Assembly (NCBI GenBank): GCA_963749155.1
Contig: CAVVLO010000003.1
Coordinates: 320,001-384,000 of the forward strand
From: an uncultured Armatimonadia bacterium
Lineage (GTDB): Bacteria; Armatimonadota; Zipacnadia; CAVVLO01
Direction: 5' to 3'
DNA length: 64,000 bases
Shown: piece by piece, positions 10,501 to 54,021 of the stretch
Layout: every line of letters begins with the position of its first letter
How positions within the stretch are numbered: the first letter of the stretch is position 1
Notes under the pieces: generated by a model
Told to the model about the DNA's origin: nothing
Databases searched by the model: none
What the model saw: only the letters and a program-made list of their open reading frames with translations
Position numbers and translations under genes: made by a program

Positions 10501-10647
10501 GAAGCCTACACGAAGCTGCTTGTCGTAAAAGACACGGTGCCCATCAGCACTCAGATCCTCGGCAAGTCGCTCTGTGAGTTTTGCATACTCGTCATGCCCA
10601 TAACTGATGAAGATGGTGAGGTGAGAGGCTGGCTGGTTTGCTTCCAT
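7557..10647 (-). CDS. TIR-NACHT(STAND NTPase)-TPR protein with a C-terminal extension; split by frameshifts near 9.1-9.2 kb, 7985 and 7810
   Basis: ATG 10647 after GGGGGAGA; TIR motifs IFISYGH, YLMTPHS, FCLKEL; Walker A GGPGTGKS; Walker B VIVIDALDE; the bridging frame reads FQPFHRSFAEWLTDEQAAGRFWVD; TPR helices follow. Confidence 0.85.
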
Positions 10648-35061: not shown

Positions 35062-38000
35062 GTTATTTCGTACCTCCCGGCGCCGGCGATCCCGGCTGTA
35101 AAGGTGAGCCAATCCTGGCTTATTTCGAATTGGACCGGCCCAAGGTCGGCTTGATCGCCTGCGGCAAGCGCCCGCAGCTTCACACTGGCAGGGGCAGGCT
35201 CTCCAGCCAGCTCTGCCAGGTTGAGTCGTATGGTGAAGGCTTTCTCGCGCGGGTAAGGGAAGAGGACCAGCTTGCGGTCGCTCTTGCTCAGCTTGAAGGA
35301 GCCATCGGTCGCGACTTTGCCGAAGTCAACCAAGGTGCCTGCGGGGTTGAGCCCCTCGGTGAAGTCAAGAGTAGCTTTGCCAAGGGCCGCCTTTGCCTCG
35401 AGCGCTGGATCCAGTTGGATATCGGTGATCTGGCCGGCTTCGCGCGTCACCAGCAGGTTGCCCAGCAGCACGCGCCCGCCTGGCAGCACGGGACCTGAGA
35501 GGTTGAGGCGTTCGCCAGAATGCAGGCCGATAACAAACTCGTAGCTGGTATTGGTATCTGCCTCAGGCGCCTCGATGATATACGGCCCGTCCTGGATTAT
35601 ATCGCCTGGCTTCCACTGGCTGGTAGGCACAGGCGGGTCATGGTCCTGCTGGAAGATAATGGTTTCGCGCGCCTCTTTGCGGTCTGACAGGAAGTGCACG
35701 AAACTGTGAAAGTCACGCGGAATCGTATCGTTCACGCGCCATTCATAAACGACCTGGAAGCGGTTGCCCCCCAGATACTGGAAATCCGCGAGCACCGGCT
35801 CGATTTGCTTCGGCGGATGGGCGTAGGGCATATCGAAAGAGGTCCTGGCGTCCGCGAACAGGAAATCGGGGCACTCGGAATAATCAGCCAGCACGCTGCC
35901 ATGCAGGCCCGAGAAGACCTCCGTGCCAGGCCCGAGGGCCAGGATACCCCCACTGGGGCAAGGCGCGCCCTTCGACTTGCCAGGACTCCTGGTTCCAGTT
36001 GACCCAGAGGATAAGCCCACTGTCGTAAGTGATACGCTGGCGGCTGGTGTCGCCGAGGGCCAGGGCGATCTCAATCGGCACCAGTTGGCCCTGCACTTCA
36101 TAGCTGATATCGGTGACTTTGGCCGTCCCATAGAGCCGCTGGGCAGGATGCATCATATGATGCTCTTTGGCGACCCATTGCACATCATCGGTCACCTGGC
36201 TGCCGACGAAGCCAGCGTGGCCATAAGCCAGCTCCTGGGCGCGGTATTTGTCCACCTGGCGCGGGGTGCCCACATTGAAGCCCCACTGGCTGGAATAGCC
36301 CTGGCTGAACCAGCGCTCGTAATAGCCCATCCCGTGGTTGACCATCTGGGGATGTACCTTGAGCAAATCAAAGTCCAGCAGCGGATTATGATGCTCTCCC
36401 CCGTTCACCTGAGCCTCGGTGCCGTCCACAACCCCTGCCCAATAGGCGTGCTGGTTGCCCTCGCCGAACAGCGGCCCCTGGTGAGTGTCGCGTTCATACT
36501 GGAAGAGCTCCGAGTCGCGCAGCACCTTGAGCTGACACATCGCAGCCATCGGCTGGGAAGCCTCGTGATCAAGCTGATGCCAGGGGGGCACGCAACTGTG
36601 GACATCGAGATAGGCGGCAGTAGTCTTGTAGGTGTCGTGGATATAGGGAGAGTTCTCCATCGCGTAGCCAAGCGCGCGATTACACTTCAGCCCAAAGCTT
36701 TGGCACCTGGGTGCCCTCGTTGAACCAGGCGAGTGAGTTGGAACCATCTTCTCGCAGCACAATTGCGCTCGGATCATAGGAGGGCGCATCGGGATAGAGG
36801 TCTATGTAGTTCTCGTGCAGAGAATTCAGATAGCCCACTTCGAGCGCGGCGTTGCCGTATTCGATCATCGCCTCTTCAGGCCCGAACTGCGGATCGGCAG
36901 GGATGTGATCCGGCAGTTTTACGTCGTAGCCATAACGCTGCCAGACGTGATTTATGATCACGGCGTGGTCTACGCCATTGTCTTTGAGGTCGCGCAGATT
37001 GGCCGCATCGCCAATGTAGGTGCCCTCGTGGTGCTTCCAGATATCCAGCATGATGCAGGGGCCGAGGGTAGCAAGATAGGTCGAAGGCTGCCAGGGGATA
37101 TTGGGCAGCACCTCGGCAAGCCGGGGCGAAACAGCGATGTAGCCTTCCTCGTGCAGGGGATTGCGGTTGCCCTCGGTCGTCTTGTCATAGTAGGCAATAT
37201 CTTGCGGACAGTGGGAGGAGCTAGTCTTCGTCCAGTCCAGATAACGGCAGGCAAAGGCTGACTCCGAGAGCAGCATATCCACTTTGCCAATCGGCATATA
37301 AGGCACATAGAACTGCCTGCGCATCCCAATCCCGGCGGTATTGCCCAGGCCAAAGGCGCGGATACGGGCATCTTCGGTGTCGGCAACAACAGTCAGGGCT
37401 TTGCCCTCGATGCCGAAAGTCCAGGTTAGCTCGAGGGGAGTTGCCCCGCACTTGTATTCCCAGACTGCGACCAGTTTTTCACCCTCAGGAGCGGCCTGAC
37501 AGGATATGAGTCTGGCATCGGAGGCCGCCTCGAAAGTGTCGGGCTTATCCGGGTCAGGGGCAAAGAGCAACTGGGCGCCCGCCATAGGGCGGAAGGTCGC
37601 GCCTTCGCCCAGGCGACATGTGAAGTCCTCCAGCCGACCTGTAGTTGGCACGTAGGTATAGACGAGGTTGCAATCGGCGCCCTGGTAGGCGAACTCCCAG
37701 GTCTCGCCCACCTGCCTTAGGGTGCTTGTATGCTCAAGCAAGTTGCCTGGAAAGATGCTGCCTGGCCGATTTGCGCAGGGCACCAGGCTCGCGTTGCGGG
37801 TAGCTTGAAGGGCCTTGCTATCCATAAGCTGAGCCAGCAGCGCTGCCTCGCCGGTTTTCTCGGAGCCTATCGTCAGCTTCGGAGTGCCAAAATAGGAATA
37901 GTCCCAGCTCGCATTGTTATCCGGCCCAGGCTCAACCTGCAGGCGCAGGCCAATCGTGCGCCCAGCATAATCGGACAGGTCGAAGGAGTAGTCTTTCCAC

Positions 38001-38461
38001 TCGGCCTCGACCTGGTGATAACGCATCAGCTCCTGCTCTGTGCCCTCTGCGACCAGATATGCGCTGAAGGTAACGCCATCGCTGCGGTCTGGCACGGCGA
38101 CATCGGCCCTCATTGCGATGCCGAAGCTGAGAGCAATCGGCGTCACGTCCGGCAGGCTCACGGTGTATTCGACGAACATCCGGCCCGGTGGGACATGCCA
38201 CGGAGAGTGCAGAAGCAGGCTCTGGCGCCCCTGCACATAGTCCGAGGGCACATACGAGATGCCTGTCTCGGTCTCGAAATGGCCCGTCCAGTCGGGTGGC
38301 ATCAGCACAGTCTGCTGACCATATGACTGATAGCCGACCGTATACTGGCCGATATCACCTAGAAACACTTCGCCTGGCGGCAGAGGGACAGGCGCAGAGA
38401 GCGCCGCTGAGGCGAAGAGGAGAATCAGCAGGCAAAGCGCGAGTGGGGCACTAGCTGACAT
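35055..38461 (-). CDS. Large secreted hypothetical glycoside hydrolase (DUF5696/GH129-like region); frameshifts at about 36705 and 35945
   Basis: Signal peptide after AGGAGG; HVWQRYGYD..LPDH.P, LHENYID.YPD, AYLDVHS, GPLFGEG. Confidence 0.6.
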
Positions 38462-38533
38462 AAGAGCTTCCTCCTGGGGCAGCAGTAGCTGGCCGAAGCC
38501 AAATTGGACATACAAGCTGCCTTTCCTGCCGCC

Positions 38534-41500
38534 TCAGGTGTCAAGCAAGCGCGAAAGCCTCAGGCAGAGAGCAGGCTCAAGCTCCTTGAGCTGATGGTCT
38601 TCAAGCAGCTGGAAAGCTTGCGAAGCGAGCTGGAAGGCCGCTTCTCTTTCGCCAAGTGCCTCGGCTACCTCCGCCTGGCCTGTAAGGGCGAGGGTTTGCT
38701 CTTCTATATAACCGTTGGCCAGCGCAAGCTGGAGAGCCTCGGAGAGAGGCGGAAGGGCCTCCGAAAAACGCTGCCAGCCGATGAGAAGCGAAGCCTGATG
38801 GAGCAGCGCAAGGGCGATGCCCCGGGCGTTATGCGCTTCTCGAGCCAGGGCGAGTTGCTGTTCGTGCAATAGCCAGGCTTCCTCGGGTTGCCCCAGGCGC
38901 GCCAGCACTTCGCCGCGGTTGCCAAGCGAGCGTACCAGACCCCGCTTGTTGCCGAGTCGTCGGCAGAGGGCTTCTTCCTCTTCGTGGAGGGCAAGCGCCT
39001 CTTCCAGCAGGCCAATTTTCGCCAAAGCCATCGCTCTGGTGCCGAGGGCCATCCGAAGGCCCTCCAGGTGACCGAGCCGGCGGCAAAGCTCCTCCTGCTC
39101 GCCTAGCAAAAAGAGCGCGGCATCTTCCTGCCCTAGTTGCAGAAGCACCAGGGCCTGTTCATGCAAGGCCGATTGCAGCTCTGCCGGGCCGCCAAGCTTC
39201 CGGGCGAGGGCTTCTTCTCTTTCGAGCAAGGCAAGCGCCTCGCGCAGTCTGCCCTGCCTGGAGAGCAGCCTTGCCTGGTCGCCAAAGCAGGCGAGCAATC
39301 CCCGCTCATCGGCCAGTTGCTCGCACAGGGACTGCTGGCGCTGAAGGAGCTGCCAGGCAGAAGCCACATCGCCCCTGGTATAGTGCAGCAAAGCTTCATG
39401 GCCAAGCGTGGCCTCGAGTTCGGGCAGGCGTTTGGCGCGTCTCGAAACGTTGTTCCAGTTCGGCGAGCAGGGCAAGTGCCTCATCTGGATGGCCGAAGTC
39501 ATCGAGGAGATGGGCCGCAGCGTGCAGCACGCCTTCTGCAAGAGCTTGCCTGTTATCAAGGAGAGGGGCAAGTGAGGCAACCAGGTCGCCCTCTCCAGAG
39601 GCTTCAAGGCGAGCCCAATAGCCTTTGAGCTCGAATTCGTCCCTTGCCCAGGTCGCTTCGAGGATATCCGGCTGTGCGAGCAGGCGCGCGAGTCGTTTGC
39701 CCTGTCCGGCGCGATCGAGTTGCCAGGGCAGTTCCTCTACCTGTCTGTCGTCCAGAGGGCGCGCCTCGAACCAGTCGGCCAGTGAGAGTCGCCACCCAAG
39801 GCCAGCGTCTATTGCCCAATAACGCTGTTCGACGGCGGTTTTGAGCGCGCGATGATAGTAGTCTACCTGTCGGCCTCGTCTCAGTAGCCAGGGGCGAAGC
39901 TGACGCAGGATGACCTGGAGTTCGCCCCGGTCGTCTTGCTGAGCGGTCAGCGAGGCAAGCTCCATCTCGGAAAGACCCGCGCGCGAAGCGGCCAGCAGGC
40001 AGGTCAGCGCCTCCACCAGGGGGGCTCGGAAGTCAAGCTCCAGTCGCTCCAGCACCTGCCCGAACAACCCAGTGACATCAGAGGCCTCGGCGAAGCGATG
40101 GAGGCGCGATTCCAGTTGCTCGAAGGAACCAAAACCACGCAGCTCTTCGAGCGCAACCTGCAGGTAGAGTGGATTGCGCGCGCCAGTATTCGCAAGCAGC
40201 AACGCTTTCTGTCCTTCTTCCAGCGTCTTGGCCGAGAGAGAAGGCAATTCCGCAAGCAGGATTGCTGCCTCTGGCTGGGCAAGTGGGGCAAGCTCGAGCA
40301 CTTCCGCGCCTCTTTTCCTTGCCTCTTCGACAAGAGGGCCCGAGGTACAACTCGCCAGGAGCTTCACGTTGGGAGGCAGCACTTCTGGAAGCCACGGCAA
40401 TCCCAGTTCGAGGTCCCTCTGGTCGAGTTGATCGAGGCCATCGATAATCAGCAGCACTTTTTCGCTCTCGGCCACCAGTCCAAGCGCAGTGCGGAAGGCT
40501 TCCGGCAGGCGCGCGGGGTCTTCAGGCACTTCCATTGGAAGACCGAGAACCTCAACCAGTTCTTGCGTGAGGCGCGCAAGCAATCTCGGCAGGCTGGTAG
40601 ATGCCGCGCTGGCGCCAACAAAATGGGGCACAACGAAAAAGTCAGGCTTATACGCAGCCCAGTCTACATAATGGCGAGCGAGAAGGGCCGACTTGCCAAC
40701 GCCAGCTTCGCCCGTGACAAGCAGAGGCTGAGCGGCCTCGCTGGCGCAAAAGGCAGCAAGTTGCGCAAGCGGCTCCTCCCTCCCCACAAAGACACGCAAG
40801 AGGGCCTCCGCAAAGAGTGAATGAGCGGCGAGTTCACCCGCAAGGGGCAGTTCTGTAATCTCGCCAGTCGTCCCTGCTACCTCGGGGTACCGTGCCGAAA
40901 TGGCCGACCAGAGGTCGTTTTCGACCCTTGTGCCGAATTCTTCGAGGCCGGACAATAACAGTGAGCCATGTTCGAGGAGAGGACTTCGGAGGGCGGCGGG
41001 CAGGGCCTGCCATTCTGCGGGAGAGATAGTCCCATCGCGCGCAAAGGCTTCAAGCCCCTCCAGTTGCGGAGTTGAAAGCAAAGGAGCCACGAGGCGCCAG
41101 TCGAGTTTGAAACCCGCCCAATGGGCTGTATAGCCCTCCATCAGAGGGAAGCCTGACTCGCGCAACCGCTCCTTAAGAACGGCAAGCTTGGCGCGCGCGG
41201 CTGGCTCCTCATCTCTCAGGAGGGGAAGCGCCTCCGCAGGCACCTCGTCCAGCAAGGCCGGATCACGCAGGTAGAAGAAGCTTTGCCCCTTCATTGGGGG
41301 ATTGAGCAGCACGCCATAGACTATCTCGAGCGCCGTAATCGAGCTGCCAGAATAGTCTTGCACCCAGGAATACCGCTGCAGTGTTTCGGGATTTACCCGG
41401 TTCGGCAACCAGCCATAACGCTCACCCAGCAGGCCCAGGAAGTAGGGACGCGTATCACTGGCCTCGGGACGGCAGCGGTCTATCTCGGCAAGGCAAAGCT

Positions 41501-41693
41501 CCAGGACTTCATCTTTCTCGGCTTGCTGACGAGTAACACCCCACCGCAGGTCAATATCGGTGAAGTAGATACGATGAGCAGCGAGACGCTCGCGCAACTT
41601 GGGAAAGACAACCTTCACCAGCCAGTCACGTTCCGCGTGCATATCGCGGAACGTTGAGCTGATGAAAACGCGCACCTCTCGCCAACGCGCCAT
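38534..41693 (-). CDS. DUF4062 (TIR-like)-NACHT/STAND ATPase-TPR protein of NPHP3/TEP1/NWD-like type; frameshift at about 39420
   Basis: VRVFISSTFRDMHAERD, IDLRWGV, CLAEIDRC, LLGERYGW, SITALEI; Walker A GEAGVGKS; Walker B LIIDGLDQ; NPLYL; ~40-aa TPR repeats (LCRRLGNKRGLVRSLGNRG). Confidence 0.9.
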
Positions 41694-41716
41694 CGGCGCC
41701 TCCTCGATGTGAGAGG

Positions 41717-42304
41717 TTAGCCTTCCGGCAGGTTGTGGATTACCAGGGCGCCCTGCTCGGGCCCGAGGCTGGTGGGAGTGCTGGTGCCAGGGATGCGGTT
41801 GCCAGCCTTTATGTGGAGCACTGGTTTACCGGCAGCAAGGGCTTTGGCGACGATCTCGCCAGTGCCTCCCTGCCCCTGAGCGCCCTGGCCATCCCAAATC
41901 GCCACCAGCACGTCCGAGTGTTCGAGGACATACTCGCCCGCCCTCGCATAACCTTCGTTGCGTTCAGCCGCCTCGGGCATCACGACGACCTCGCGGGCGT
42001 GTTCGAGTAGCCTGTCAAACTCGGCCAGGGATTCAGGAGTCTCGAAATCCTGCTCGTATTCCATCTGATCGAAGGGCAAGACGGCTACAAGGCCGCCCCC
42101 AGGGCGATCAATTACCGCCTCGGCGACCAGCCTGTCGGCGCCTTCGGCCAGGGAGGAAAGACAAACAAGTTCGCTGCCCCGGAAGGTGTCTTCCAGCAGG
42201 TCGAGCGCGCGTTCGAGACTGGCCAGCAGTCTGGGCAATTCGGCCAGGAACCGATGGCCGGTGATACCGACATACAAGGATCCAGTAACTTGTTGCATCG
42301 TCAC
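41717..42304 (-). CDS. Stand-alone SLOG (SMF/DprA-LOG, YpsA-like) nucleotide-binding protein
   Basis: VGITGHR, SSLAEGADRLVAE, AVLPF, YARAGEYVLEHSDVLVAIWDG, GGTGEIV. Confidence 0.8.
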   Translation of the reverse strand: MTMQQVTGSLYVGITGHRFLAELPRLLASLERALDLLEDTFRGSELVCLSSLAEGADRLVAEAVIDRPGGGLVAVLPFDQMEYEQDFETPESLAEFDRLLEHAREVVVMPEAAERNEGYARAGEYVLEHSDVLVAIWDGQGAQGQGGTGEIVAKALAAGKPVLHIKAGNRIPGTSTPTSLGPEQGALVIHNLPEG

Positions 42305-45084
42305 TTATGGGCCTCCGAGGGCAGTTTTACCAGGTGGTAACGCAATTCGGCCAGCAGCCCGGGCAGGTTGCGTTCGAGCTGCAGGCTTTTCTCTTTTAAC
42401 TTCTGAGGCAGCGCGTCCTTGCCACACGGCTCAATAAAGCCAGGGCAGTTGTGAGTAAGCCAGTCATCAACCGGTTCGCACCAGGCGCGCAAGTACTCAT
42501 TGAGCTTCGACGTCTTGTCAGGCACAGGAGCAAACTTCCAGCCATCAGCCAGCTTGGCTCTCATCCAGCGGATATGTTCGAGTTCGGCAAGCCTGTCGAC
42601 ATCGTCGTCGGGAAGAGCTTGCGGCGACTGGCCTTCACGTGCGGGTACGATGACATAACCTACTGCTCTCAGGCGGCGCGTCAGATTACGCACTGATTCT
42701 CGATTGGCTTCTTTATCCGCTTCGCCAAGTTGCGCCCAATCAGGATAAGCCCTGGCACCAGATTGAAATACTTCACGATAGTTCTCGTGGGACATCCTGG
42801 CCAGTTGTTCGAGCACCTCGCCGCGTATTTCCAGTGAATCTGCCAGAGCCAGGAACTCGGTGCCATCAACGTGGAGATTAAGCTGCGACTCGAGAGGCAA
42901 GCTCGAACGCTCGAACTTGCGACGCGACGCGAGCAGGCTCATATTGATGAGGGCCTCCAGGCTGCGCACGCCATGGTAGTACTTGCTGACTTCAAGGAAA
43001 GCTCCGAGCACACCCAGGTCCATGTTGAGCTCACCTTTACCTTCAGGTTGCTCGAACAGATGGGCAGCGTTGATTTTGAGCAGCTCGCGCAGAGTGACAG
43101 CCCTGCGGATGACATGGTAGGGGTCTCCCCCATCATGGGTGCGATTCGGCCCCATTATGTCAACATAGCCGCGCAACCGGCTCACAAAGTCAGGCCCTTT
43201 AACCTGGCGGAAGGCTTCATCGCCCCCTTCGAGATTCTGACCGAATTCTGCCATCTGATGACAGGTGCCCCCCGCGAAGACGAAGATGGCCGGCCCGATG
43301 GGATGGGTAATCTGGCCCTCCTGGAAGCTGCCATCCTGCATCGGTGAGAGGAAATAGCGCAACCAACCCAACGGCTGATCGTTGAGGCGGGTGTCGAACT
43401 CGTCCCAGAAGACGAGAGGGACTTTACCGGAGAGTGAGACATCTCTTACCTGATGCAGGGCGTCAAGCAGTTGCTCGGGATCGTTGAACTGCGAAAGATT
43501 GAAAGTCTTTTCTTCCAGTTTGTCCTTCGCAAGTGCGCGCGCAAGCTGCTTGATGCCGAAGGACTTGCCCGAACCAGGAGGGCCAAACACCGCCAGATTG
43601 AGCGGTGGGCTCTTGGGCTTGTCGCAATAACTCCGGATAAGCGAAGCAAGCACGCGATAACTCTCGATTTCGCGCCTGTCTACCACTGTCAATTTGCCAA
43701 AGGTAGCTGTAGGCACGCCTGCAAGCCTGTTGCCCAGGCCGTTCAATACTATCCCCCTGGCGACATCCAGCAAGGGGCTTCCTGATCCGCGAGGTTGCTC
43801 TGGGTCTTCGGAAATCTCTTCGCAACTGGCCTGAAGCAAAGTCCAGTAACCATGCCCTGAGCGAAAGCGTTCGGTTTCTGACCAGGCGATAATCGGAGGC
43901 TGCTCTTTGGTTGGGACGACTTGCGAACCTTGCACCCCACCAAACTGAAGCTCGAGTTCCTCCCTGGGCAAAGTCAGATGGCGCACAGGGTCAGCAATCG
44001 GGGCGACCACAAACGCTTCGGCCGGCTGGCTTACGGTATCCGCGACAAGCTGGAGAGGAAAGACCAGCCGGTCAACATCCCCAGGTTGCTTAACAAGCTG
44101 ATAACCTTCGAGATGCAATTTGCGCATGGCGGCCAGTCCACCTTTTATGGCGGCAGGCCAATCTGGGGTGCTGGTCCTCAGCAACTCCCGGGTGACTGCA
44201 GCTGCCAGGCAGGTGTTATATCCGATTATCCTGCCTTCGAAGCCGGCCTCCCAGGAGCCTTCGATGTTATGCGGATCGAAAATCAGCTTGCACAAGGAAC
44301 TGCCATCCGGCTGCCGCACAAGCAAGAGGCACCCAGCAGCCCGGAAGGTGACGATGACAGCGGCACACTTGGACAGACTGCTGATATCACGGTTATGAGT
44401 GAGCTCCCAGAAGGCATCCTGAGCTGTGCGCTCCCAGGAAAGGGCCCGCGATAACTGCATGCCCGAGGCGCGCAGATCATCTGCAGTCACCAGGACAACC
44501 AGCCGGTCGGCATACGCAGGCACCAGTCGCTCCCAAAGAGGCCCCTGGGCAACCGGGTCAGAGAGCTTGAGCAAGATTGGCCCTTTATACTGCTTGCTGC
44601 TCAAGGCAAGAGGCCAGAGCTCGGGTCGCCTCCTGAAATCGAAACCGGCATCGTCAAGCACAACCAGAGCCGGATCCGGCACATCGTCAACTAACCCACG
44701 CCAACCAGCCAACTCGCTAGTTTCGACATCGCAGCAGTCATCAACTCCAAGCAATTCGTCTACGCGCCAGACGCTAACTCTGGAACCGTTTTCCTTAGGG
44801 TAAGGCTTCCACATTGCGAAGGCATGATGATGATCGGGATCGCCCGGGGCGATTGCAGTCAGCGGCGCCTGAGGTTGACGAAGCTCAAACTTCCCTGGCA
44901 GGCTTGCTGCAACCAGTTCGATGACATCAGCCAGCAAGGCGGCGCCACCTCGCTGCCAACAGGCCCGGATGCCCTTGAAGCCCTCAAGCCTGGCCTCGCC
45001 ACTGGGACAACGCATCATATTCCAGTCCATCGTGACATCGCCCGTTACAACGCAAAGGCGGGCAGCATCCTTACGCTTGCGCAT
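42301..45084 (-). CDS. PfkB/ribokinase-like domain + AAA+ ATPase + tandem RyR repeats
   Basis: VVTGDVTMDW and GGAALLA; Walker A GPPGSGKS; Walker B VFWDEFD; PDFVSRL; HGVRSLE; RyR motifs LARMSHENY and LAELEHIRW...GWKF. Confidence 0.82.
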   Translation of the reverse strand: MRKRKDAARLCVVTGDVTMDWNMMRCPSGEARLEGFKGIRACWQRGGAALLADVIELVAASLPGKFELRQPQAPLTAIAPGDPDHHHAFAMWKPYPKENGSRVSVWRVDELLGVDDCCDVETSELAGWRGLVDDVPDPALVVLDDAGFDFRRRPELWPLALSSKQYKGPILLKLSDPVAQGPLWERLVPAYADRLVVLVTADDLRASGMQLSRALSWERTAQDAFWELTHNRDISSLSKCAAVIVTFRAAGCLLLVRQPDGSSLCKLIFDPHNIEGSWEAGFEGRIIGYNTCLAAAVTRELLRTSTPDWPAAIKGGLAAMRKLHLEGYQLVKQPGDVDRLVFPLQLVADTVSQPAEAFVVAPIADPVRHLTLPREELELQFGGVQGSQVVPTKEQPPIIAWSETERFRSGHGYWTLLQASCEEISEDPEQPRGSGSPLLDVARGIVLNGLGNRLAGVPTATFGKLTVVDRREIESYRVLASLIRSYCDKPKSPPLNLAVFGPPGSGKSFGIKQLARALAKDKLEEKTFNLSQFNDPEQLLDALHQVRDVSLSGKVPLVFWDEFDTRLNDQPLGWLRYFLSPMQDGSFQEGQITHPIGPAIFVFAGGTCHQMAEFGQNLEGGDEAFRQVKGPDFVSRLRGYVDIMGPNRTHDGGDPYHVIRRAVTLRELLKINAAHLFEQPEGKGELNMDLGVLGAFLEVSKYYHGVRSLEALINMSLLASRRKFERSSLPLESQLNLHVDGTEFLALADSLEIRGEVLEQLARMSHENYREVFQSGARAYPDWAQLGEADKEANRESVRNLTRRLRAVGYVIVPAREGQSPQALPDDDVDRLAELEHIRWMRAKLADGWKFAPVPDKTSKLNEYLRAWCEPVDDWLTHNCPGFIEPCGKDALPQKLKEKSLQLERNLPGLLAELRYHLVKLPSEAHK

Positions 45085-45100
45085 AGGTTTACCTCCAGAA

Positions 45101-46888
45101 TCAAGCCTCAGGCTTTGAGCACTCGCAGTTCGGTGCTCCAGACCGGCAGAGTTCCAGGCCGACGGTGCCCAGCAGGCGCGGCAGGCCCCTTATGGCAGCG
45201 CGATTCTTCTCGCGAGTGGTTTCCTGAAGTTCTCCCCATTCCAGCAGGTCGGGATGAGTCTTGCGTCGAGAGTCCTTGGGACCAGGGGCATACTTCCAGC
45301 CCGACTCTTCACGTTCCTTGCGCCAGCGAGAATGCTCCTTTTGGGCCACTTGCTCAAGTGTTGCTTCATCCAGCCGATACTGGCCGGCATCCAGCCTGGT
45401 CAGAGCGCGGATCCCAAGCCCTGCCTCGGCAAGCAACTGACCAAGCGCGTCGGCCTGGGTGCGGTTGGAGTCCTGCAGTCGTTCGGGCAACTGGCTCCAG
45501 GGCACGAGGGAGGAGTTGGTCTCGGGCGTATCGCCAAGCTTCAGGGCCTCGGCGACATATTGCTCGTGCAGGGCCCTTGCTAGCAGCTCATGGCCGCTTG
45601 AAAGCAGCTGCTCGGGCGTGCAGGCGCGTTCCAGCAAGCCGAAGACCTGCAGCCGATAAGCTTTATGATCGGGCGTACTGACCCGCAGCAGAGCAGCCAG
45701 GCCGTTTTCTTCCTCAAGCCTCACGATGATGGGGGCATCAGATTCGGGCAGCTTGGGCTCGAGTCTTAATGCGGCAGAGACTGCAAGCGGTTCATCGTCC
45801 AGGCATATGAACACCGAGGTCAGTTTGACGCCAGGCTGGGTAGTGAGGAATTCGGCCCTGTGGAACTCGACCGATTCGAGACTAAAATCGCGCGTTGTGA
45901 TCTCGAGGACTTCCTCAACCAGAGGCAGCCGGGTCACCAGGGCGGTCAGACGTTCGGTTGCGTATCTGTCTATCAAGGTTACGAAAGGCTTGGGAGCGCC
46001 TTCCGGCGCCAGAGCTTGCCACTCTATCGCGAGCTGGGAAAGCAGGCTCTGTCCAAACTGACCGAAGCCAACAATCACAAGCGCTGGCCTGGTTGGCAGG
46101 TCCATCGGTAAGGGGCGCGTCTGGCTGAGCAGCACGCGGGCGCCTGCCTCAAACAGATTGAAATACTCTATCCTCAGGCCACTTTCGGCAATTGTGTTGT
46201 AACTCTGCTCGCGCAATAACTCGTAGAGCAGTGGATCGGAGATATGGGCAAAGCAGGTCGCGCGCGGCCCGGAGTTTTTCAGGACCAATTCTCGGCATCT
46301 AAGGGCAATTTCGGCGTTAGAGCCCGCAGGGCCGCAGACAGCGAGGATGTAGCGCGCCCTGGCAACGCGCGCCTTGCGCAGCAGCTCGGGCTCGGTCGCA
46401 TCGCCGTGCAATACGATGGCCCCCGCGTGCCTTGCGGCTTCAATCCGGTCGTTGGCTTCATCTCGCTCGATAATGACAACTCTGAGGCCATCTTTCAGGA
46501 AGGCGCGCGCCCAGAGCAGCCCCTTGCGTCCCAGGCCACAGATGACTATATGGCCAGAATAACGACGCAGGCGCAGGAAAGCGAGTTCCTCGGAGAAGAG
46601 CAACGCCACAGCTTTTACAGCAGTGAAGCCAGCTACAAGCGGAGCAAGCCAGCGAGCCAGTTCAAGCAGAGGCGGGATGGGTCCTTCCAGCGAGCCGGAT
46701 TCGAGCACGAAGAGCTGCAGGGTAAGGTAAAAAGCGCCTGCCAGCGAGTAGGGAGTGCCGGCCTCGAGCCCCTGCTCCAAAAATCCCACTAGCCCAGCAA
46801 GCGTGGCAATCCCCCAGACGAGGGCGACCAGCCACCCCTGCAGGTCGCGCACGAACTCCCAGAAGCCCCCGAGGCGGCCGCTAGCCAA
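45101..46888 (-). CDS. 2TM channel-like protein with two RCK/TrkA_N domains and tandem RyR repeats
   Basis: TM1, pore-helix-like AFYLTLQLF, TM2; HIVICGLGRKG, GDATEPELL; LVIVGFGQFG; LARALHEQY...LVPWSQL...SNR; AQKEHSRW...GWKY...KTHPDLLEWGEL. Confidence 0.87.
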   Translation of the reverse strand: MASGRLGGFWEFVRDLQGWLVALVWGIATLAGLVGFLEQGLEAGTPYSLAGAFYLTLQLFVLESGSLEGPIPPLLELARWLAPLVAGFTAVKAVALLFSEELAFLRLRRYSGHIVICGLGRKGLLWARAFLKDGLRVVIIERDEANDRIEAARHAGAIVLHGDATEPELLRKARVARARYILAVCGPAGSNAEIALRCRELVLKNSGPRATCFAHISDPLLYELLREQSYNTIAESGLRIEYFNLFEAGARVLLSQTRPLPMDLPTRPALVIVGFGQFGQSLLSQLAIEWQALAPEGAPKPFVTLIDRYATERLTALVTRLPLVEEVLEITTRDFSLESVEFHRAEFLTTQPGVKLTSVFICLDDEPLAVSAALRLEPKLPESDAPIIVRLEEENGLAALLRVSTPDHKAYRLQVFGLLERACTPEQLLSSGHELLARALHEQYVAEALKLGDTPETNSSLVPWSQLPERLQDSNRTQADALGQLLAEAGLGIRALTRLDAGQYRLDEATLEQVAQKEHSRWRKEREESGWKYAPGPKDSRRKTHPDLLEWGELQETTREKNRAAIRGLPRLLGTVGLELCRSGAPNCECSKPEA

Positions 46889-46939
46889 GGTCCCCCCTCC
46901 CTGCTGGCAGATTCGCCAGCGCGGGAGGGATTCCTGCTA

Positions 46940-49609
46940 TCAGTCTTCCAGCATGAAACTCGGCTTGGCGAGGCTTTGGCTGCGCCAGGTTTGGTCAGGC
47001 TGTTCGAGCCCCTGGGCGCGCGCCTTGCGAGCTTCGGGGGTGCTCAGGGCTTGCTCCAGTTGCTTGCGGAAGAGCTTGAGCTCGCGCGCCTGGGTCTCCG
47101 TCACATAGCCATCGCATTGATAATCAGCCCAGAGGATGCCGGGCACCCCGCCGTTCTCGTAGACCGCTTTGAACCAGGGATAAGCGGCAGTGAGGACGTG
47201 CATCATCGCGCCCTGGCGAGGTTCAGGCAGATTGTAGGCGATGCGATAATCGGTGCCCCAGCGCTCGTTAATCGCGATATCGCGCATATTGTCGAACTGA
47301 GGGAACCAGCAGGGCACGATGCCCTGTTCCACGGCCTGCGAGGTCAGCCAGGCGACTTCACTAGGGGTATAAGGGATTGTCGTGTAGTCGCTGTGGAAAG
47401 CGATGAGGCCCGAGGCTTGAAGCTGCTCCGCAATCGCGCCGGTGCGCCGCTGGCTGTACCAGATATGGCGCAGATGGGGATTAGGGTCCTCCGGATTGAG
47501 GCCTGAGACCATCACGTTGGCGCCTTCGGTGCGCAAGGTGATCTTCGCCCCAGGCACCACGCGCCGGAAGCGCTCCAGCGTATCGGCATAGTTCTTCAGG
47601 CGCAAGTCAGTGCGGAAGGCATCCCAGTCCAGCACGGCCTGGTTCCAGTCGTGGAAGGGATGGGCCGGGTCGGTGTATTCCCAGAGATGCCCGAAGGCAT
47701 TACGTACCTGATTTGCCTCGGGGTCGATCTCTTCAAGGCTGGCAAATTCGGTGTCCCAGGCGGCATTGATGCCGGCAAGGTCGCCATACTTCTGCTCGGC
47801 CCACTTGCGGAACAGCTTGATGACCGAAGTGCCCTCTGGATAACGCGTATTCACATCCTGACGCATCCAGCCGCGGCTGTCCTCGACGCTGATGGGCACT
47901 GTGCCGTCTTCGAGCTGGAAGTAGAGATCGCCCCAGCGGCGGAAGTTGTAGCGCCACATAACATCGGTGGCGAGAATCAGGTTGCGACTGGCGTGGCTTG
48001 CCTGGATGCCTTGTCGCTCCATCGGGAACTGACGGCCAGAAATCCACTCGGCGATAGGGCCAATGTTGTAGCGATCAAAGGGATAACTGCCCCAGCCTTC
48101 GACCTGCAGCCCCTCGCGACGGGCCTGGTCGAGGAAGTACTTCAACCCGTCAGCCCACTGGTTGGAGCGTTCCTCTCCCCCATCCACCTGCCAGGTCTCA
48201 CCGAAGTCTTCATAAAGCCAGGGCATACTGGTCGTCGCGACCACGTTTATCCCACAGTCGCGCATCTGTCTGAGCGAAGCCAGCAGGTGTTGCTCTGGAT
48301 ACGGCCCAAGCTGGACGTTCTGGCGCATATCCGACATCGTCTGGCTGTAGATAGCCGGATAACGCAGGCCGTCCTGGATGACATTGGCCTGGTGGTCAGG
48401 ATCGAAAGTAACCCTCAGGCTGGCGTCGCTGACATCAACAGGCAGCGCGAGGCTCTTGCACGCCACTGGCCCAGTCGTAACGAGCTTCACCACAACGTGT
48501 TTGGTCCAGGGGGCGACCTGAAGGCCCAGCGTGCCGGAAATCGAGTGGACGGCCGGGTCTTTGGGGGCGGCAAGCTGGCCCTCGAAGGTGGTCATAAACT
48601 CCTCGAAGCTGTGGATCCACCGAGTCAGCTTGTCCTCCTCTCCCCCGTTGCTGAGGGTCTCTTCAATAGGCGCAACAGGCGTTTGACGGGCTTCTTTCTC
48701 AACTGTGAAAGGCAGCTCGTGGAAGGTCATCCAGGCGCCTTCCCACATATTGAGCATCCAGTTTTCGTCTTTGTAGCGCCGATATTGGGACCGGAAGCGC
48801 AGCTTGTACTCGCCAGGCGCCAGGCCGAGGTTTTGAGGGGTCTCTTTGGCGCCCTGAGTAACAATCGAGACCCAGGTCTCGTGCGATTCGCCAGGATAGA
48901 GATACTCCAAATCACGGATATAGAGGTTGTAATGCTGCCCGAGGAACCTGAATTCGCCGGCTTCGTCCTTGCGCAGCAGCTCCGGGTTGAGCAGCCAGGC
49001 GCCAAAGCCTTCCGGATCGAGGATTGTGTCACCGGTATTGGTGAACCGAAACTTGAACCAGACCAGATCGCCGGCCTCGACTACGCCGGAACGCGTCAGA
49101 GGGCGGGTATCGAAGCTTGGATAGTGGCCAGGCTCATCGGAGAAGTCCGGTTTCATCACATTGCGTCTGCCGGGGACGATGTGAGCTGTGACAGAGCCGA
49201 GATACTCGACATCCAGCGCGAGCTTGCCGGGCAGCGCCAGGTCGAACAGATCTCGTCCCTTACGGCGAGAGTTGTCCTCGAAAGCGGTGGCCTCGACATA
49301 GACGGGGAAAGCGGGCTGGCTGCCTTCTTCCCAGGAAAGGGTGTAGTTGGAGGGGCACCGTGTCATAGGCCTGCGCTTTTCGCGGCGGTTGAAGGTGAGC
49401 TTGTAGCCGGCGGCTTCGAGGGTGGCAGAGCGCATCGGTACGTTCTCATAGAGGGCCCACTGGCCGGTCTTCTGCGCCTCTCTGGTCAGTGGTTTGTAGA
49501 CAAGCCCACCATCTTCAGCCAGGGGGTATTCCCAAACGGGGGCGGGCCTGGGCACTGCGGCCACGGCAAACTGGGCAAGCGCGAGCAAAAGTATCACTAG
49601 AAAGGGCAT
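46940..49609 (-). CDS. Secreted protein with a GH42 (beta-galactosidase)-like catalytic region
   Basis: Signal peptide from ATG 49609; MRDCGINVV; FRKWAEQKYGDLAGINAAWDTEFASLEEI; LDWDAFR. Confidence 0.65.
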   Translation of the reverse strand: MPFLVILLLALAQFAVAAVPRPAPVWEYPLAEDGGLVYKPLTREAQKTGQWALYENVPMRSATLEAAGYKLTFNRREKRRPMTRCPSNYTLSWEEGSQPAFPVYVEATAFEDNSRRKGRDLFDLALPGKLALDVEYLGSVTAHIVPGRRNVMKPDFSDEPGHYPSFDTRPLTRSGVVEAGDLVWFKFRFTNTGDTILDPEGFGAWLLNPELLRKDEAGEFRFLGQHYNLYIRDLEYLYPGESHETWVSIVTQGAKETPQNLGLAPGEYKLRFRSQYRRYKDENWMLNMWEGAWMTFHELPFTVEKEARQTPVAPIEETLSNGGEEDKLTRWIHSFEEFMTTFEGQLAAPKDPAVHSISGTLGLQVAPWTKHVVVKLVTTGPVACKSLALPVDVSDASLRVTFDPDHQANVIQDGLRYPAIYSQTMSDMRQNVQLGPYPEQHLLASLRQMRDCGINVVATTSMPWLYEDFGETWQVDGGEERSNQWADGLKYFLDQARREGLQVEGWGSYPFDRYNIGPIAEWISGRQFPMERQGIQASHASRNLILATDVMWRYNFRRWGDLYFQLEDGTVPISVEDSRGWMRQDVNTRYPEGTSVIKLFRKWAEQKYGDLAGINAAWDTEFASLEEIDPEANQVRNAFGHLWEYTDPAHPFHDWNQAVLDWDAFRTDLRLKNYADTLERFRRVVPGAKITLRTEGANVMVSGLNPEDPNPHLRHIWYSQRRTGAIAEQLQASGLIAFHSDYTTIPYTPSEVAWLTSQAVEQGIVPCWFPQFDNMRDIAINERWGTDYRIAYNLPEPRQGAMMHVLTAAYPWFKAVYENGGVPGILWADYQCDGYVTETQARELKLFRKQLEQALSTPEARKARAQGLEQPDQTWRSQSLAKPSFMLED

Positions 49610-49696
49610 AGGTGGCACCTCATCCATCAGGCTGGGCTGATTATACAAGAGGGAGACCCCTCCTGAAGAGCGAAGTTGCGGCAAACCAGGGGAGTG

Positions 49697-50417
49697 ATGA
49701 ATATGAAACAGAATTTCCCCATATGGGCGTTTGCTTGCCTCCTGCTGCTGGTTGGGCTGGTACTAGCCCTTGCGCTGGCTCAGGAAACCACACCAGCTGC
49801 AGAGGTTCAGCAAGGCCAGCTAATCAGCCTACCGGTACCCGACACGCAGGGCACGATGCCGCTTGAGACAGCGCTTATGAAGCGCCGGTCGGTGCGGGCC
49901 TATTCCGATCAGGGGCTCACGCTGTCCCAGGTTGGTCAGCTTGTCTGGGCGGCCCAGGGGATTACCGAACCGAACCGCGGCCTGCGGACCGCACCTTCGG
50001 CGATAGCGATGTATCCACTTAAAGTCTATGTCATCGTGAAAACCGCCGAAGAACTGGCGCCTGGGGTCTGGCGCTATGTGCCAGCTTCTCATTCGCTGGA
50101 GCGTGTCAGGGGCGCTCTCTCAACCGAAGAAGCCGCTCGCGCGCTGCCCCAGGGGGCTATGAAACAGGCTCCGGTAGTCGTTGCGATCACCGGCGATCTC
50201 TCGATTATAGGGCAGCGCGTGCCTGACAGGGCGCTCGAATGGACGGCAATAGAGGTCGGGCATGTGGCGCAGAACGTCCTTCTGGAGGCTGTCGCGCTGG
50301 GGCTGGCCTCGGTGCCTGCCGCAGGTTTCGATCCCGCCTCGGCGCTTGCCGGCGATGGGCCTGGCCGCTCCCGAGCAGCTTTTCTACCTGCTGCCAGTTG
50401 GTTATCAGAAGCAGTAA
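49697..50417 (+). CDS. SagB/ThcOx-type nitroreductase-family protein with signal peptide; indel at about 50345
   Basis: LETALMKRRSVRAY, WAAQGIT, RTAPSA..YPL, EVGHVAQN; corrected C-terminus LFYLLPVGYQKQ*. Confidence 0.88.
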
Positions 50418-50427
50418 GAGCGCCTAC

Positions 50428-51528
50428 TCAGGCTCGGAAAGCGCCTTGTGAAGCCTTGCGGCCTCCTCGGTGAAGGCCGTCCAGCCGGGCTTGGGTTCTA
50501 CCTTTCTCGTTGAAAAGGCCAAGCGAAGTCAGATAATGCATAAAAGTGTCGTCCGCCAAGAGCTCGGGAGCCAGCAAGCCTTCGAGGGCTATCTTAGTGC
50601 CGTCCCAGGGCCAGTCGTTAAGCGACAGCCACGAAGCGCCAAGCAAGCGTCCGCGATTGCGTTCAAGCCAGGCGAACAGCTTGTGGATGAACTCGGCCTG
50701 CACCTCGGGCGAGGAGCCGAGGCTCTCGTGGCTTGCACAGCCAAGCTCTTGCAGGTAGACGGGCTTGTCCCTGGCGGCCTTCAACACCGCATCAAGGGTC
50801 TTCTCAAAGTAGAAAGGACTGTCGGGATTTAGCCCCTCGGTCGTCGCGGGGCCGCCAAACATCTTGCAGGGCATATAGTAGGTGGCACTGAGCACATCAC
50901 AGAAAGGTTCGAAGCGCGGCCACCAACGCTCAACAGAGCCGGCGGTCAGGGTAACGCCTACGGCGATGTCAGGATGCAGGCGCCGAATAATCTGAGCGCC
51001 TTCTTTGAAGAGGACCAGATAGTCTTCCAAAGCCTGCTCGGGCCTTGCGCCGAAGTAGGTATCCACCTCGTTGCCGATAACAATCAGGTCGACCAGGTCG
51101 CCATACCGGGCCACCCAGGCCTCGATATAGGCGCGCCAGCGCGCCAGAGTGAGGGGGTCGGCGAAGCCCCGGTCTTCAAGCCCGGCAGGCAGATGGGCGT
51201 GATCCATATGGACCACATCGCAGAAAAACTGGACATAATACCCGCGTCGCTTGAGTTCGGTCAGGTAGACCCGATACAGGTCCTCTGCCGGGTCTTTGGG
51301 GAAGTAGTACTCGCCCTCGGCGCTCTCGCCCCAGGGAAACATCAGATGGATGGTCTTAAGCCCGAGCTGCTCGGAGAGCGGCCATTCTGTGTCTTTGCCA
51401 GGGCCAGGTATCCCATCAAGGCCAAGGGGCAACGGGCCGGTCAGAGGGCTAGCCGCCTCCTCGGGAAACGCGCAGCCAGCAAATATCACGACGAATAACA
51501 AAAGGCCAACTAGCAGAAGGCTTGGCAT
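50428..51528 (-). CDS. Lipoprotein, clan GH-A-like glycoside hydrolase
   Basis: FAGC lipobox; IVIGNEVD acid/base motif and KPVYLQELG nucleophile motif. Confidence 0.7.
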   Translation of the reverse strand: MPSLLLVGLLLFVVIFAGCAFPEEAASPLTGPLPLGLDGIPGPGKDTEWPLSEQLGLKTIHLMFPWGESAEGEYYFPKDPAEDLYRVYLTELKRRGYYVQFFCDVVHMDHAHLPAGLEDRGFADPLTLARWRAYIEAWVARYGDLVDLIVIGNEVDTYFGARPEQALEDYLVLFKEGAQIIRRLHPDIAVGVTLTAGSVERWWPRFEPFCDVLSATYYMPCKMFGGPATTEGLNPDSPFYFEKTLDAVLKAARDKPVYLQELGCASHESLGSSPEVQAEFIHKLFAWLERNRGRLLGASWLSLNDWPWDGTKIALEGLLAPELLADDTFMHYLTSLGLFNEKGRTQARLDGLHRGGRKASQGAFRA

Positions 51529-51555
51529 AAGGCACCTCCAGGACGACTACTGGTA

Positions 51556-52068
51556 TTACTCCTCGCCGGCCTCTTGGGTTTCATCAAACGACTCCCGTCC
51601 AAGCAAGGCGCTAATCAGGCTGGACTGTTTCAAAGTGAGGGTATGCAATTCGGCCACTTCGCCCCGCAGATGGTGCAACTGATGGTGCAGCTTGGCTATT
51701 TCGTGTTCGGCCTTGCGGTTGACTTCATAGTCCTCTTCGTCCCTTAGCCTGTCGCGCGATTCCGTTCGGTCCTGGCTCATCATAATGACGGGCGCCTGGA
51801 TAGCGGCCATACACGAGAGCACCAGATTGAGCAGAATGAAGGGGTAGGGATCGAAGCGTCCCCGGCCAGTTGTCAGAGAGTTGTAGACCATCCAGACAAT
51901 CAGAACGGCCAGGAAGCTCAGGATGAAAACCCAACTGCCAGCAAAGGCGGCCAGTCGATCCGCCATCTTCTGGCCAAGGGAGAGCTTCTCGTCATGCAAC
52001 TGGGCAATATTTCGGGTCGTCTGTTGAAAATCGGGTGGCAAGTGGTTTTCGTTTTCCTGGACGGGCAT
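51556..52068 (-). CDS. DUF1003 membrane protein
   Basis: ADRLAAFAGSWVFI, FDPYPFILLNLVLS..AAIQAPVIMMSQ. Confidence 0.92.
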   Translation of the reverse strand: MPVQENENHLPPDFQQTTRNIAQLHDEKLSLGQKMADRLAAFAGSWVFILSFLAVLIVWMVYNSLTTGRGRFDPYPFILLNLVLSCMAAIQAPVIMMSQDRTESRDRLRDEEDYEVNRKAEHEIAKLHHQLHHLRGEVAELHTLTLKQSSLISALLGRESFDETQEAGEE

Positions 52069-52140
52069 AGTGCGCGACCTCCCTGGCTTCGCGCAGGAGA
52101 GCCGGTCTGGCAGGCGAATCTCCGGCGCGAGGTGAAGTTA

Positions 52141-54012: not shown

Positions 54013-54021
54013 AGGCACAAG

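Follow-up and report, generated by a model that had tools for sequence, protein, structure and literature searches.

What is the role of a bacterial protein in which a kinase-like domain, an AAA+ ATPase and repeats of the ryanodine receptor type (RyR) are fused, and which is encoded directly beside a channel-like protein that carries RyR repeats as well? The question is raised by a locus in an uncultured Armatimonadia bacterium (assembly GCA_963749155.1, contig CAVVLO010000003.1; genome of 4.17 Mb), of which a stretch of 64,000 nucleotides (nt), here called the window, was analyzed. The gene encodes a protein of 927 amino acids (aa). A first-pass annotation, made from the letters alone, had described this 927-aa protein as a fusion of a non-catalytic ribokinase-like domain, an ATPase and RyR repeats, and had proposed it to be a regulator of the adjacent channel. 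The three-domain architecture (ribokinase fold, AAA+, RyR) was borne out, and all the motifs quoted are present in the translation of 42301-45084 (minus strand), namely VVTGDVTMD (residues 12-20), GGAALLA (46-52), VVLDD (141-145), IGYNT (287-291), MQDG (582-585), PDFVSRL (631-637) and HGVRSLE (704-710). The role has to be drawn more widely. In our reading, to which we assign a probability of around one half, the 927-aa protein is the core ATPase of a Thoeris-like module that comprises several genes, has spread horizontally and uses NAD-derived nucleotide signalling in conflicts, such as the defense against phages.

Relatives were collected in a word-indexed protein search (E <= 1e-3), which yielded at least 554 full-length proteins, and at least 554 were confirmed in a scan of one genome per species. 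The gene neighborhoods concern the 80 best of these at least 554 loci, taken as the best tblastn matches. A recognisable open reading frame (ORF) for the core protein was present in 79 of the 80 (it was absent in L074), and 70 of those had a total flank of at least 4 kb. Neighborhood counts over these 70 loci are based on domain-level searches; furthermore, 812 ORFs were called de novo and clustered.

A limited set of domains recurs around the core gene. We found a SLOG domain in 37 of the 70 loci, a TIR_2-like domain in 31, a DUF4062 domain in 24 and a transmembrane protein with an RCK domain (TM-RCK) also in 24. TIR or DUF4062 occurred in 49 loci, and with four TIR_2 and four DUF4062 matches in the 4.17 Mb of the window's own genome, the only one from which the estimate was made, around 0.04 would be expected per 18-kb stretch. 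Any of these partners or an extra RyR gene was recovered in 65 loci. After the core, the largest ORF clusters were those of SLOG (28 loci), TM-RCK-RyR (21), DUF4062-NACHT (19) and WD40 (16) proteins; another cluster (12 loci) consisted of proteins of around 590 aa, in which the same SLOG domain is followed by a C-terminal region that has four hydrophobic segments and matches SLATT_3/DUF4231 weakly. In many cases the TIR and DUF4062 NADases were joined to STAND NTPases that carry TPR or WD40 sensors. Considering the fact that every recurrent partner (the NADases, SLOG, RCK and RyR) is of a domain type known to make or bind ADP-ribose-type nucleotides, the set points to a Thoeris-like module. 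Further neighbors included TIR fused to ConA-like, PPC, TPR or STAND parts, sigma-54-type AAA proteins and RyR proteins of 95 aa. In one locus the core gene is adjoined by a gene for a protein with a RelA/SpoT nucleotidyltransferase domain, TPR repeats and a weak match to LSDAT_prok, the SLOG of TRPM (L011:10722-12785, plus strand; same cluster in L008 and L039), and this protein may be a second nucleotide signal maker at some loci.

Of the 72 loci in which 700 nt or more follow the core gene, 29 have a SLOG domain that begins no more than 300 nt beyond it on the same strand. The order is mostly core-SLOG-channel and in the window channel-core-SLOG, with the set retained. The membrane partners are complementary, being either a channel-like protein with two transmembrane segments (2TM-RCK-RyR) or a SLATT-like pore fused to SLOG; RCK was found in 15 of the 27 loci with a stand-alone SLOG versus 1 of the 12 with the SLOG-SLATT-like fusion. 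The proposed link to the channel thus stood insofar as the two proteins co-occur in 24 of the 70 loci, in two gene orders. It was too narrow in that SLOG (37/70) and TIR/DUF4062 (49/70) are commoner, and together with the lack of RCK in 11 of the 12 fusion loci this argues that the channel is not the main partner. The recurrent partners place the 927-aa protein in a nucleotide-signalling (conflict) module rather than making it a dedicated channel regulator.

The resemblance to Thoeris can be specified. According to the available text of the preprint on 29 putative types of Thoeris, type I senses 3'cADPR through SLOG (in the SIR2-SLOG protein ThsA; cADPR is cyclic ADP-ribose), type VII combines a SLATT effector with canonical cADPR, a bacterial TIR signal, and type X has an ion-channel effector with an unknown signal (10.64898/2025.12.03.692087). 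The terms RyR, AAA, ATPase and kinase have zero occurrences in the main text of that preprint, figures and tables aside. DUF4062 is presented, in the available parts of two other preprints, as a TIR-like NADase that produces ADP-ribose (ADPR) and nicotinamide, also where it is the effector domain in STAND proteins of the Avs type (10.64898/2026.05.01.722283, 10.64898/2026.09.04.749371). As in Thoeris, genes for TIR-type NADases are found beside SLOG sensors and SLATT-like or channel-like membrane effectors, and the distribution is patchy, with horizontal spread. The window itself has a TIR-type NADase gene (DUF4062-NACHT, its TIR-like nature being taken from the preprints) and a protein with a signal-binding-type fold (a SLOG protein of 195 aa). 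Thoeris is described as a TIR protein (ThsB) plus one effector, whereas the constant member here is the ribokinase-fold/AAA+/RyR protein and SLOG is separate. The loci differ further in having an RyR unit as candidate sensor on two proteins, and in their NADase, frequently a fusion of DUF4062 or TIR with a STAND NTPase. In this reading the kind of signalling, via TIR/NAD-derived nucleotides, is a known one, and the core protein family and the putative host-side RyR sensor units would be new. A description of the family or its architecture was not found in the literature searched, including combinations of RyR with TrkA, ribokinase or SLATT, and two comparative-genomics papers (PMC7159879, PMC7824862) do not mention RyR, ribokinase, PfkB, DUF4062 or TrkA.

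The family is large and patchily distributed across bacteria and archaea. The 120 relatives listed were 42-46% identical over 95-100% of the query, measured 864-961 aa and were annotated in their sources as 'ATPase', 'RyR domain-containing protein' or 'hypothetical protein'. An exhaustive search with residues 1-460 recovered 1511 cluster representatives at E <= 1e-3, of which 292 reached E <= 1e-30. Hosts of the 80 loci belonged to the Chloroflexota, Acidobacteriota, Planctomycetota, Ignavibacteriota, Bacteroidales (Bacteroidota), Bacillota, Actinomycetota, Deltaproteobacteria, Alphaproteobacteria (Pseudomonadota), Gemmatimonadota and Cloacimonadales, and included a metagenome-assembled genome (MAG) of Dojkabacteria (Candidate Phyla Radiation) and two archaeal MAGs. 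Within the class of the window's organism, the family was present in 11 of 41 genomes, its own counted; among the 33 better-quality genomes, 7 had it. In the window's own genome it is single-copy. A tblastn search of a phage collection gave no match to the family, and members were found on three plasmids. One of these, on a 45.6-kb plasmid of Clostridium estertheticum (NZ_CP086241.1, 23700-26264; L089), is annotated as 'Ryanodine receptor Ryr'.

Length variants suggest which parts are constant. Among 30 cluster representatives that were chosen for their unusual lengths, all seven of 1047-1193 aa (P0126, P0146, P0163, P0183, P0202, P0248 and P0265, with around 170-270 extra residues) had an RyR match, and none of the 16 of 680-778 aa (among P0145-P0274) had one at E <= 1e-3. 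The latter keep the ribokinase fold and the AAA+ domain, and in view of the missing RyR match these two domains seem to form the constant core of the family.

The N-terminal domain was assigned on basis of its predicted structure. An AlphaFold2 model of residues 1-460, made from 120 aligned rows, had a mean local confidence (pLDDT) of 87.7 and a predicted TM-score (pTM) of 0.88. In a Foldseek search of the PDB, PfkB-family kinases occupied every listed rank, with pseudouridine kinase 7c1x_B on top (E 4e-9, probability 1.00) and 369 matches at E <= 1e-3. VIA-align superposed residues 9-369 of the model onto 7c1z_A with Z 19.9 (286 residues, root-mean-square deviation 4.8 A), and 460 of the 999 re-aligned chains reached Z >= 8; all the chains listed were PfkB-family kinases, with ribokinase, adenosine kinase, tagatose-6-phosphate kinase, ketohexokinase and HldA at Z 17-19. 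The model thereby confirms the predicted ribokinase fold, the beta-sheet lid included. At the sequence level the relationship does not show. The PfkB model PF00294 had no match at E <= 0.1 in the 927-aa protein, and before residue 475 no Pfam, NCBIfam or PADLOC model matched at that level. Profile comparison (hhalign) with eight PfkB kinases from the window's own genome gave E 0.39 over strand 1 only when a shallow alignment was used in local mode; a deeper alignment gave E 0.083, which is not significant, was co-linear over 278 columns and was used solely to place motifs.

In this statistically weak alignment the GG dipeptide of the PfkB kinases falls on G46-G47 and the Asp after strand 1 on D16, which are invariant or nearly so and fit the strand-helix topology of the model. 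With D144/D145 they constitute the retained sugar-side residues. NXXE aligns to T200-A-D-D203, of which D203 is part of a nearly invariant D203-L204-R205, and GAGD aligns to G288-Y289-N290-T291, in agreement with the start of a helix at residue 289 in the model. To our knowledge, the Asp of GAGD is the catalytic base in all characterised PfkB kinases. The family consensus at this position is G-Y-T-[T/S]-C, and an acidic residue is absent at the start of helix 289-303. Given this consensus and the alignment, the catalytic Asp is, as judged from the sequences, lost family-wide, as had been predicted from the GYNT of the window's copy. The domain is nevertheless the best-conserved portion of the 927-aa protein: among 109 relatives that are only 31-45% identical to it, G15 and S216-W217-E218 are invariant and D16, D20, G46, G47, R107, D145, R151, R205, D270, E275, G284 and G288 nearly so. 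Compared with E. coli RbsK (1RKD), pseudouridine kinase (7C1Z) and HldA (4E84), the domain thus has the same overall fold and lid (Z 18-20 over around 270-290 residues), the Asp after strand 1 and the GG dipeptide. It deviates in lacking a PF00294 match, in having G-Y-[N/T]-[T/S] for GAGD, T-x-x-D for NXXE (in the non-significant alignment) and around 13 additional residues before the GAGD position, and in being fused to an AAA+ domain.

The linker that follows is of low confidence or disordered at residues 382-406 (pLDDT < 50 at 382-396 and 402-406), and in the window's copy it carries an insertion of around 25 residues that most relatives lack. Beyond it, the AAA+ module carries a Walker A motif GPPGSGKS (501-508) and a Walker B motif VFWDEFD (558-564, with D561-E562). 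Among 46 family sequences, the set used for all residue counts in the AAA+ and RyR parts, G501, P503, G504, G506, K507, S508, D561 and E562 are invariant, and so are R636, R660/R661 and R707, which come into question as Arg finger and sensor 2. The Walker motifs are therefore intact, as noted before, and likewise GAFTGA is absent from the translation and neither Sigma54_activat nor a helix-turn-helix domain was matched in the Pfam scan. All Pfam AAA models remained below their cut-off in the 927-aa protein (sub-threshold P-loop/AAA matches at around residues 475-570, next to a sub-threshold RyR match; PF00004 at 16.2 bits versus 21.2), although some relatives pass PF00004, such as P0152 with 27.6 bits. 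The closest Atlas clusters with a name carry PF00004 (scores 0.96 and 0.94). The assignment to a Clp/NtrC clade was not confirmed; the family profile found only weak relatives in the PDB (E 0.009-0.09), namely classical-clade AAA proteins (Vps4/SKD1, Rpt subunits, Cdc48 D2, Mpa) and Hsp104, each matched from Walker A through Walker B. With Vps4, the Rpt subunits and Cdc48 D2 the module has Walker A, the DE of Walker B, the Arg of 'SRL' and an 'MQDG'-type segment ahead of sensor 1 in common; as read from the sequence, it differs in its short pore-loop-1 segment, which lacks the aromatic-hydrophobic-Gly motif.

In the strongest of the alternatives, the 927-aa protein is itself an effector enzyme. 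Sensing would then fall to the RyR unit and switching to the AAA+ module, and the N-terminal domain would be active with non-canonical catalytic residues, modifying or phosphorylating a nucleoside, ADPR or NAD precursor and so either yielding the real second messenger for SLOG or depleting a metabolite. In STAND and Avs-type immune proteins the output domain is usually N-terminal, the NTPase central and the sensor C-terminal, and the 927-aa protein has this layout. The conservation of the N-terminal domain, with its invariant G15 and S216-W217-E218, the acidic D203 at the aligned position of the NXXE Glu, the forms of around 700 aa that keep the N-terminal and AAA+ domains with no RyR match, and the loci that lack any membrane partner, would all be accommodated. 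We nonetheless hold it to be unlikely, considering that the GAGD Asp aligns to Thr/Ser with no acidic residue starting the helix and that Pfam does not recognise a PfkB domain, whereas the conservation equally fits a pocket for an invariant messenger. In the reading that we favor, the sugar side that was kept while the catalytic base was lost suggests that a ribokinase fold has been reused as a ribose/nucleotide sensor.

The channel-like neighbor of 595 aa was recognised by TrkA_N (74 bits) and RyR (50.2 bits), and has hydrophobic segments at residues 16-39 and 80-99. Between these, a segment of the form ...Y.t.QLf.LESG... is conserved in 19 relatives, and from its sequence the layout resembles that of a 2TM channel that has a pore loop and carries an RCK ring. 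The filter signature of K+ channels is TVGYG; the pore-loop-like segment has L-E-S-G at this position and thus no K+ signature. Its gene and the gene of the 927-aa protein are separated by 16 nt, in which GGAGG is found. At the other end, the GTG start of the SLOG gene overlaps the TGA stop of the 927-aa gene (GTGA), and the DUF4062-NACHT gene begins 23 nt downstream of the SLOG gene; the four genes are co-directional and tightly packed. The 195-aa SLOG protein had no Pfam match, and the profile of its family found nothing better than E 0.71 among PDB sequences, the fold being seen by structure alone. Its AlphaFold2 model (pLDDT 95.9) retrieved YpsA (2nx2; E 1.1e-7, TM-scores 0.64/0.70) in Foldseek, followed by DprA, ShosA, LOG, Moco carrier protein and the N-terminal domains of TRPM2/4/5/8, and a SLOG fold is also indicated by the Atlas lead to a YpsA cluster (score 0.89).

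The 927-aa protein could also be a housekeeping regulator of a cation channel, which together with the RCK-RyR protein senses ATP, ADP, NAD(H) or a sugar, with the TIR/STAND genes as mere neighbors. The RCK/TrkA_N domains of K+ transport classically bind NAD(H) or ATP/ADP, and the genes that flank the module in the window are those of carbohydrate metabolism. The R12 domain of the animal RyR, moreover, binds adenine nucleotides, as far as the available text of PMC13232231 goes. Such a function is improbable: the channel is present in only 24 of the 70 loci and replaced by SLOG-SLATT-like fusions at others, it lacks the K+ filter, the distribution is patchy, with the family in 11 of the 41 same-class genomes, and 49 of the 70 loci have TIR or DUF4062 versus around 0.04 expected per stretch.

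The RyR repeats would provide a connection to cyclic nucleotides. A family profile of residues 746-927 matched the animal RyR1/2/3 at E 1.1e-38, with both halves aligning to R12/R34, and the Bacteroides 'putative ryanodine receptor' structures (3NRT/6UAG) at around 2e-16. By this profile, the C-terminus is a complete two-repeat RyR unit. RyR repeats are thus common to the 927-aa protein and the adjacent channel-like protein, as had been noted, but each has its own complete two-repeat unit and the suggested homotypic RyR-RyR docking found no support. The other suggestion, a common nucleotide ligand, is plausible by analogy and would fit the phage RyR-domain proteins, which in the available text of PMC13232231 cleave 2'/3'cADPR or bind them with nanomolar affinity. 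One of these, RyDEP, is an inverting glycosidase with the catalytic dyad H75/D117, whose W78 packs against the adenine and whose H100 touches the phosphates; in R12 of human RyR3 these same residues are in contact with adenine ligands (same source). Mapped by motif and spacing, the putative counterpart of H75/W78 is 'EH.RW' of repeat 2; the His in 'K[LT]H' takes the place of H100, and the Asp in 'EKDR', 17 residues past that His, that of D117. The first His is present in all 46 family sequences, the Trp in 43, the second His in 29 (Asn in 14) and the Asp in 45. In the window's copy H837 and W840 are kept, and repeat 2 of the channel-like neighbor reads EHSRW...KTHPDL...EKN, i.e. His, Trp, His, Asn, as in animal R12. 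The phage proteins and the family described here belong to the same domain family (PF02026, R12-type) and, as mapped, have the pocket His and Trp in common, with the second His and the Asp kept in the family consensus as well. RyDEP is a small phage anti-defense protein with a single repeat that forms a homodimer, whereas here tandem repeats end large proteins of the host that are encoded together with NADases in one operon, which places them on the defense side. Directly upstream of the core gene in one locus lies a gene for a stand-alone RyR protein of 95 aa with a single full domain (115.8 bits; L046:7673-7957, plus strand; same cluster in L059), which is of the size class of phage RyDEP yet host-encoded.

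The presence of both mapped dyad residues in the consensus, the His in 46 and the Asp in 45 of the 46 sequences, opens another possibility: the RyR unit could cleave cyclic ADPR and thereby set a threshold for, or switch off, the SLOG protein and the channel, limiting self-damage. In RyDEP, H75 and D117 are indeed catalytic, but seven of the eight further homologs assayed did not cleave the signal in spite of conserved sequences (both in the available text of PMC13232231), so the dyad residues do not predict catalysis. Considering furthermore that the AAA+ module and the ribokinase-fold domain are left unexplained, that the window's copy has a Ser at the Asp position and that the residues were mapped from motif spacing only, we deem a reset function quite improbable.

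For the Thoeris-like module, we infer the following course from the observed domain identities, operon structure and recurrent gene set. Upon infection, a STAND-linked TIR or DUF4062 enzyme would convert NAD+ to ADPR or to a cyclic ADPR isomer, which would be bound by the RyR units of the 927-aa protein and of the channel; some members may also cleave it, as the His/Asp pair in the family consensus is like the RyDEP dyad. Binding might be translated by the AAA+ module into an ATP-dependent assembly or switch, while the ribokinase-fold domain could provide a second ribose/nucleotide-binding site or an output surface. The assembly and the translationally coupled SLOG protein would then control a membrane effector, the channel in the window and the SLATT-like pore elsewhere, which may depolarise the cell and so abort the infection.

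Several observations weigh against this interpretation. The 80 loci are no random sample and related loci are not independent, and the chance level was derived from a single genome. TIR and DUF4062 are absent from the flanks in 21 of the 70 loci, and five loci have no partner at all (L044, L048, L062, L075 and L080). The plasmid copy of C. estertheticum sits between a gene for a chemotaxis receptor and genes for histidine kinases (two-component system), with no SLOG or TIR gene among the listed features of a possibly incomplete gene table. The protein can thus exist without the module, or its partners may be located elsewhere. DUF4062 proteins, furthermore, have been described as effectors that act on their own, depleting NAD and producing plain ADPR (available parts of 10.64898/2026.05.01.722283 and 10.64898/2026.09.04.749371), so that their adjacency might reflect the clustering of defense islands instead of signalling. 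The kinship of DUF4062 and TIR is taken from these preprints; our own hhalign comparison of the DUF4062 and TIR_2-like domains of the loci was not significant (probability 2.3%, E 0.021) and is no evidence of it. PADLOC recovered no known defense model across the four proteins of the window and nothing for the channel and SLOG proteins, and given the flanking genes of glycoside-hydrolase type, the module does not lie within an obvious defense island. With respect to the RyR unit, Pfam recognises it in the single sequence at residues 829-867 with 23.2 bits, under the cut-off of 27.4, and the RyDEP residues were placed by motif and spacing only. The window's copy is the sole one of the 46 with a Ser at the Asp of repeat 2, has Asn for the second His, and is short of around 17 residues in repeat 1; its pocket may be in the course of being lost. 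Finally, the frame switches from DUF4062-NACHT to TPR near 39440-39490. Homologs of 1011-1131 aa align to both frames and represent DUF4062-NACHT with a C-terminal TPR sensor as one protein; with the TPR repeats in another frame, the local gene may be frameshifted, split or an assembly error. Together with the degenerate RyR repeats, this frame change could mean that the local module is partly decayed.

That the 927-aa protein is an independent defense or stress protein, with neighbors that merely reflect the general clustering of defense genes, would agree with DUF4062 and TIR-STAND proteins that work alone (available parts of 10.64898/2026.05.01.722283 and 10.64898/2026.09.04.749371), with the five partnerless loci and with the solitary plasmid copy, but is very improbable in the light of the translational coupling to SLOG (GTGA; within 300 nt in 29 of 72 loci), the tight same-strand spacing, the RyR unit in two genes of the operon and the complementary membrane partners.

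If the Thoeris-like reading holds, a large and widespread family joins the TIR/NAD-derived immune signalling systems, and a third kind of component is added to the signal maker and the effector, namely an ATPase with two candidate nucleotide pockets. RyR repeats would then act on the host side, whereas so far only phage anti-defense RyR proteins have been characterised. A bolder and rather doubtful extension, which we put forward tentatively, is that the R12-type RyR units of the host are receptors, and in some members hydrolases, for the ADPR-derived signals of TIR/DUF4062, that they directly gate the 2TM-RCK channel and drive the ribokinase-fold/AAA+ protein as a signal-processing ATPase, and that they are the prokaryotic counterpart, possibly even the evolutionary origin, of the way in which cADPR is linked to RyR channels in animals. 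The binding of cyclic ADPR to R12-type domains has long been debated for the animal ryanodine receptors, and the bacterial proteins would offer small soluble RyR units and a simple RyR-bearing channel to test the binding of cyclic ADPR isomers to R12.

The coordinates of the genes and domains are collected in Table 1.

Table 1. Genes and domains of the module in the window (positions in nt of the window; residues refer to the encoded protein)
Feature	Position	Strand	Basis
Whole gene of the 927-aa protein: ribokinase fold, AAA+ ATPase and tandem RyR repeats	42301..45084	-	ORF and translation, ATG start, 927 aa
Ribokinase/PfkB fold with lid, residues 6-365	43990..45069	-	AlphaFold2 model, Foldseek, VIA-align, hhalign, family invariants
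Linker, residues 366-454	43723..43989	-	pLDDT, alignment columns 461-500
AAA+ ATPase, residues 455-745	42850..43722	-	Invariant columns, weak Pfam/PDB matches
Two RyR repeats (R12-like unit), residues 746-927	42304..42849	-	PDB profile, residue counts
595-aa channel-like protein: TM1, pore-loop-like segment, TM2, RCK (TrkA_N), second Rossmann-like region, tandem RyR	45101..46888	-	Pfam, hydropathy, 19-sequence alignment
195-aa SLOG-fold protein	41717..42304	-	AlphaFold2 model, Foldseek
765-aa DUF4062 + NACHT STAND NTPase	39396..41693	-	Pfam DUF4062 (50.3 bits), NACHT (48.3 bits)
TPR ORF in another frame	38534..39607	-	Pfam TPR_12

The NCBIfam and PADLOC scans were uninformative for the 927-aa protein; the PADLOC matches consisted of one to mad8 that was restricted to the P-loop (E 5.9e-4), and of two at E 0.04-0.056 for the NACHT protein. 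A scan of 38000-50000 for promoters and terminators returned one promoter-like and eight terminator-like sites, with no excess over shuffled sequences. The ORFs at 36680-38515, 35884-36789 and 35055-36131 had no Pfam match. Beyond them, around 8 kb downstream of the module on the same strand, lies a gene for an ADP-ribosylglycohydrolase (PF03747, 75.9 bits; 33366-34643, minus strand), which is suggestive of ADPR metabolism; it did not recur as a cluster in the 80 loci and was dropped as a member of the module. The same holds for the GH42-like gene at 46940-49684 (minus strand), of which no relative was found in any of the 80 loci. The latter and the genes at 49676-57161 make up the flank on the other side, with GH42-like, GH4, GxGYxYP, beta-helix and nitroreductase annotations. 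A TIR_2 match (50.1 bits), one of the four in the genome, is located around 30 kb away from the module in an open frame of 559 aa (around 10255-10614, minus strand; G000:C3:330255-330614). Finally, the G+C fraction dips to 0.569 at 42001-44000, as compared to 0.59-0.62 on either side.

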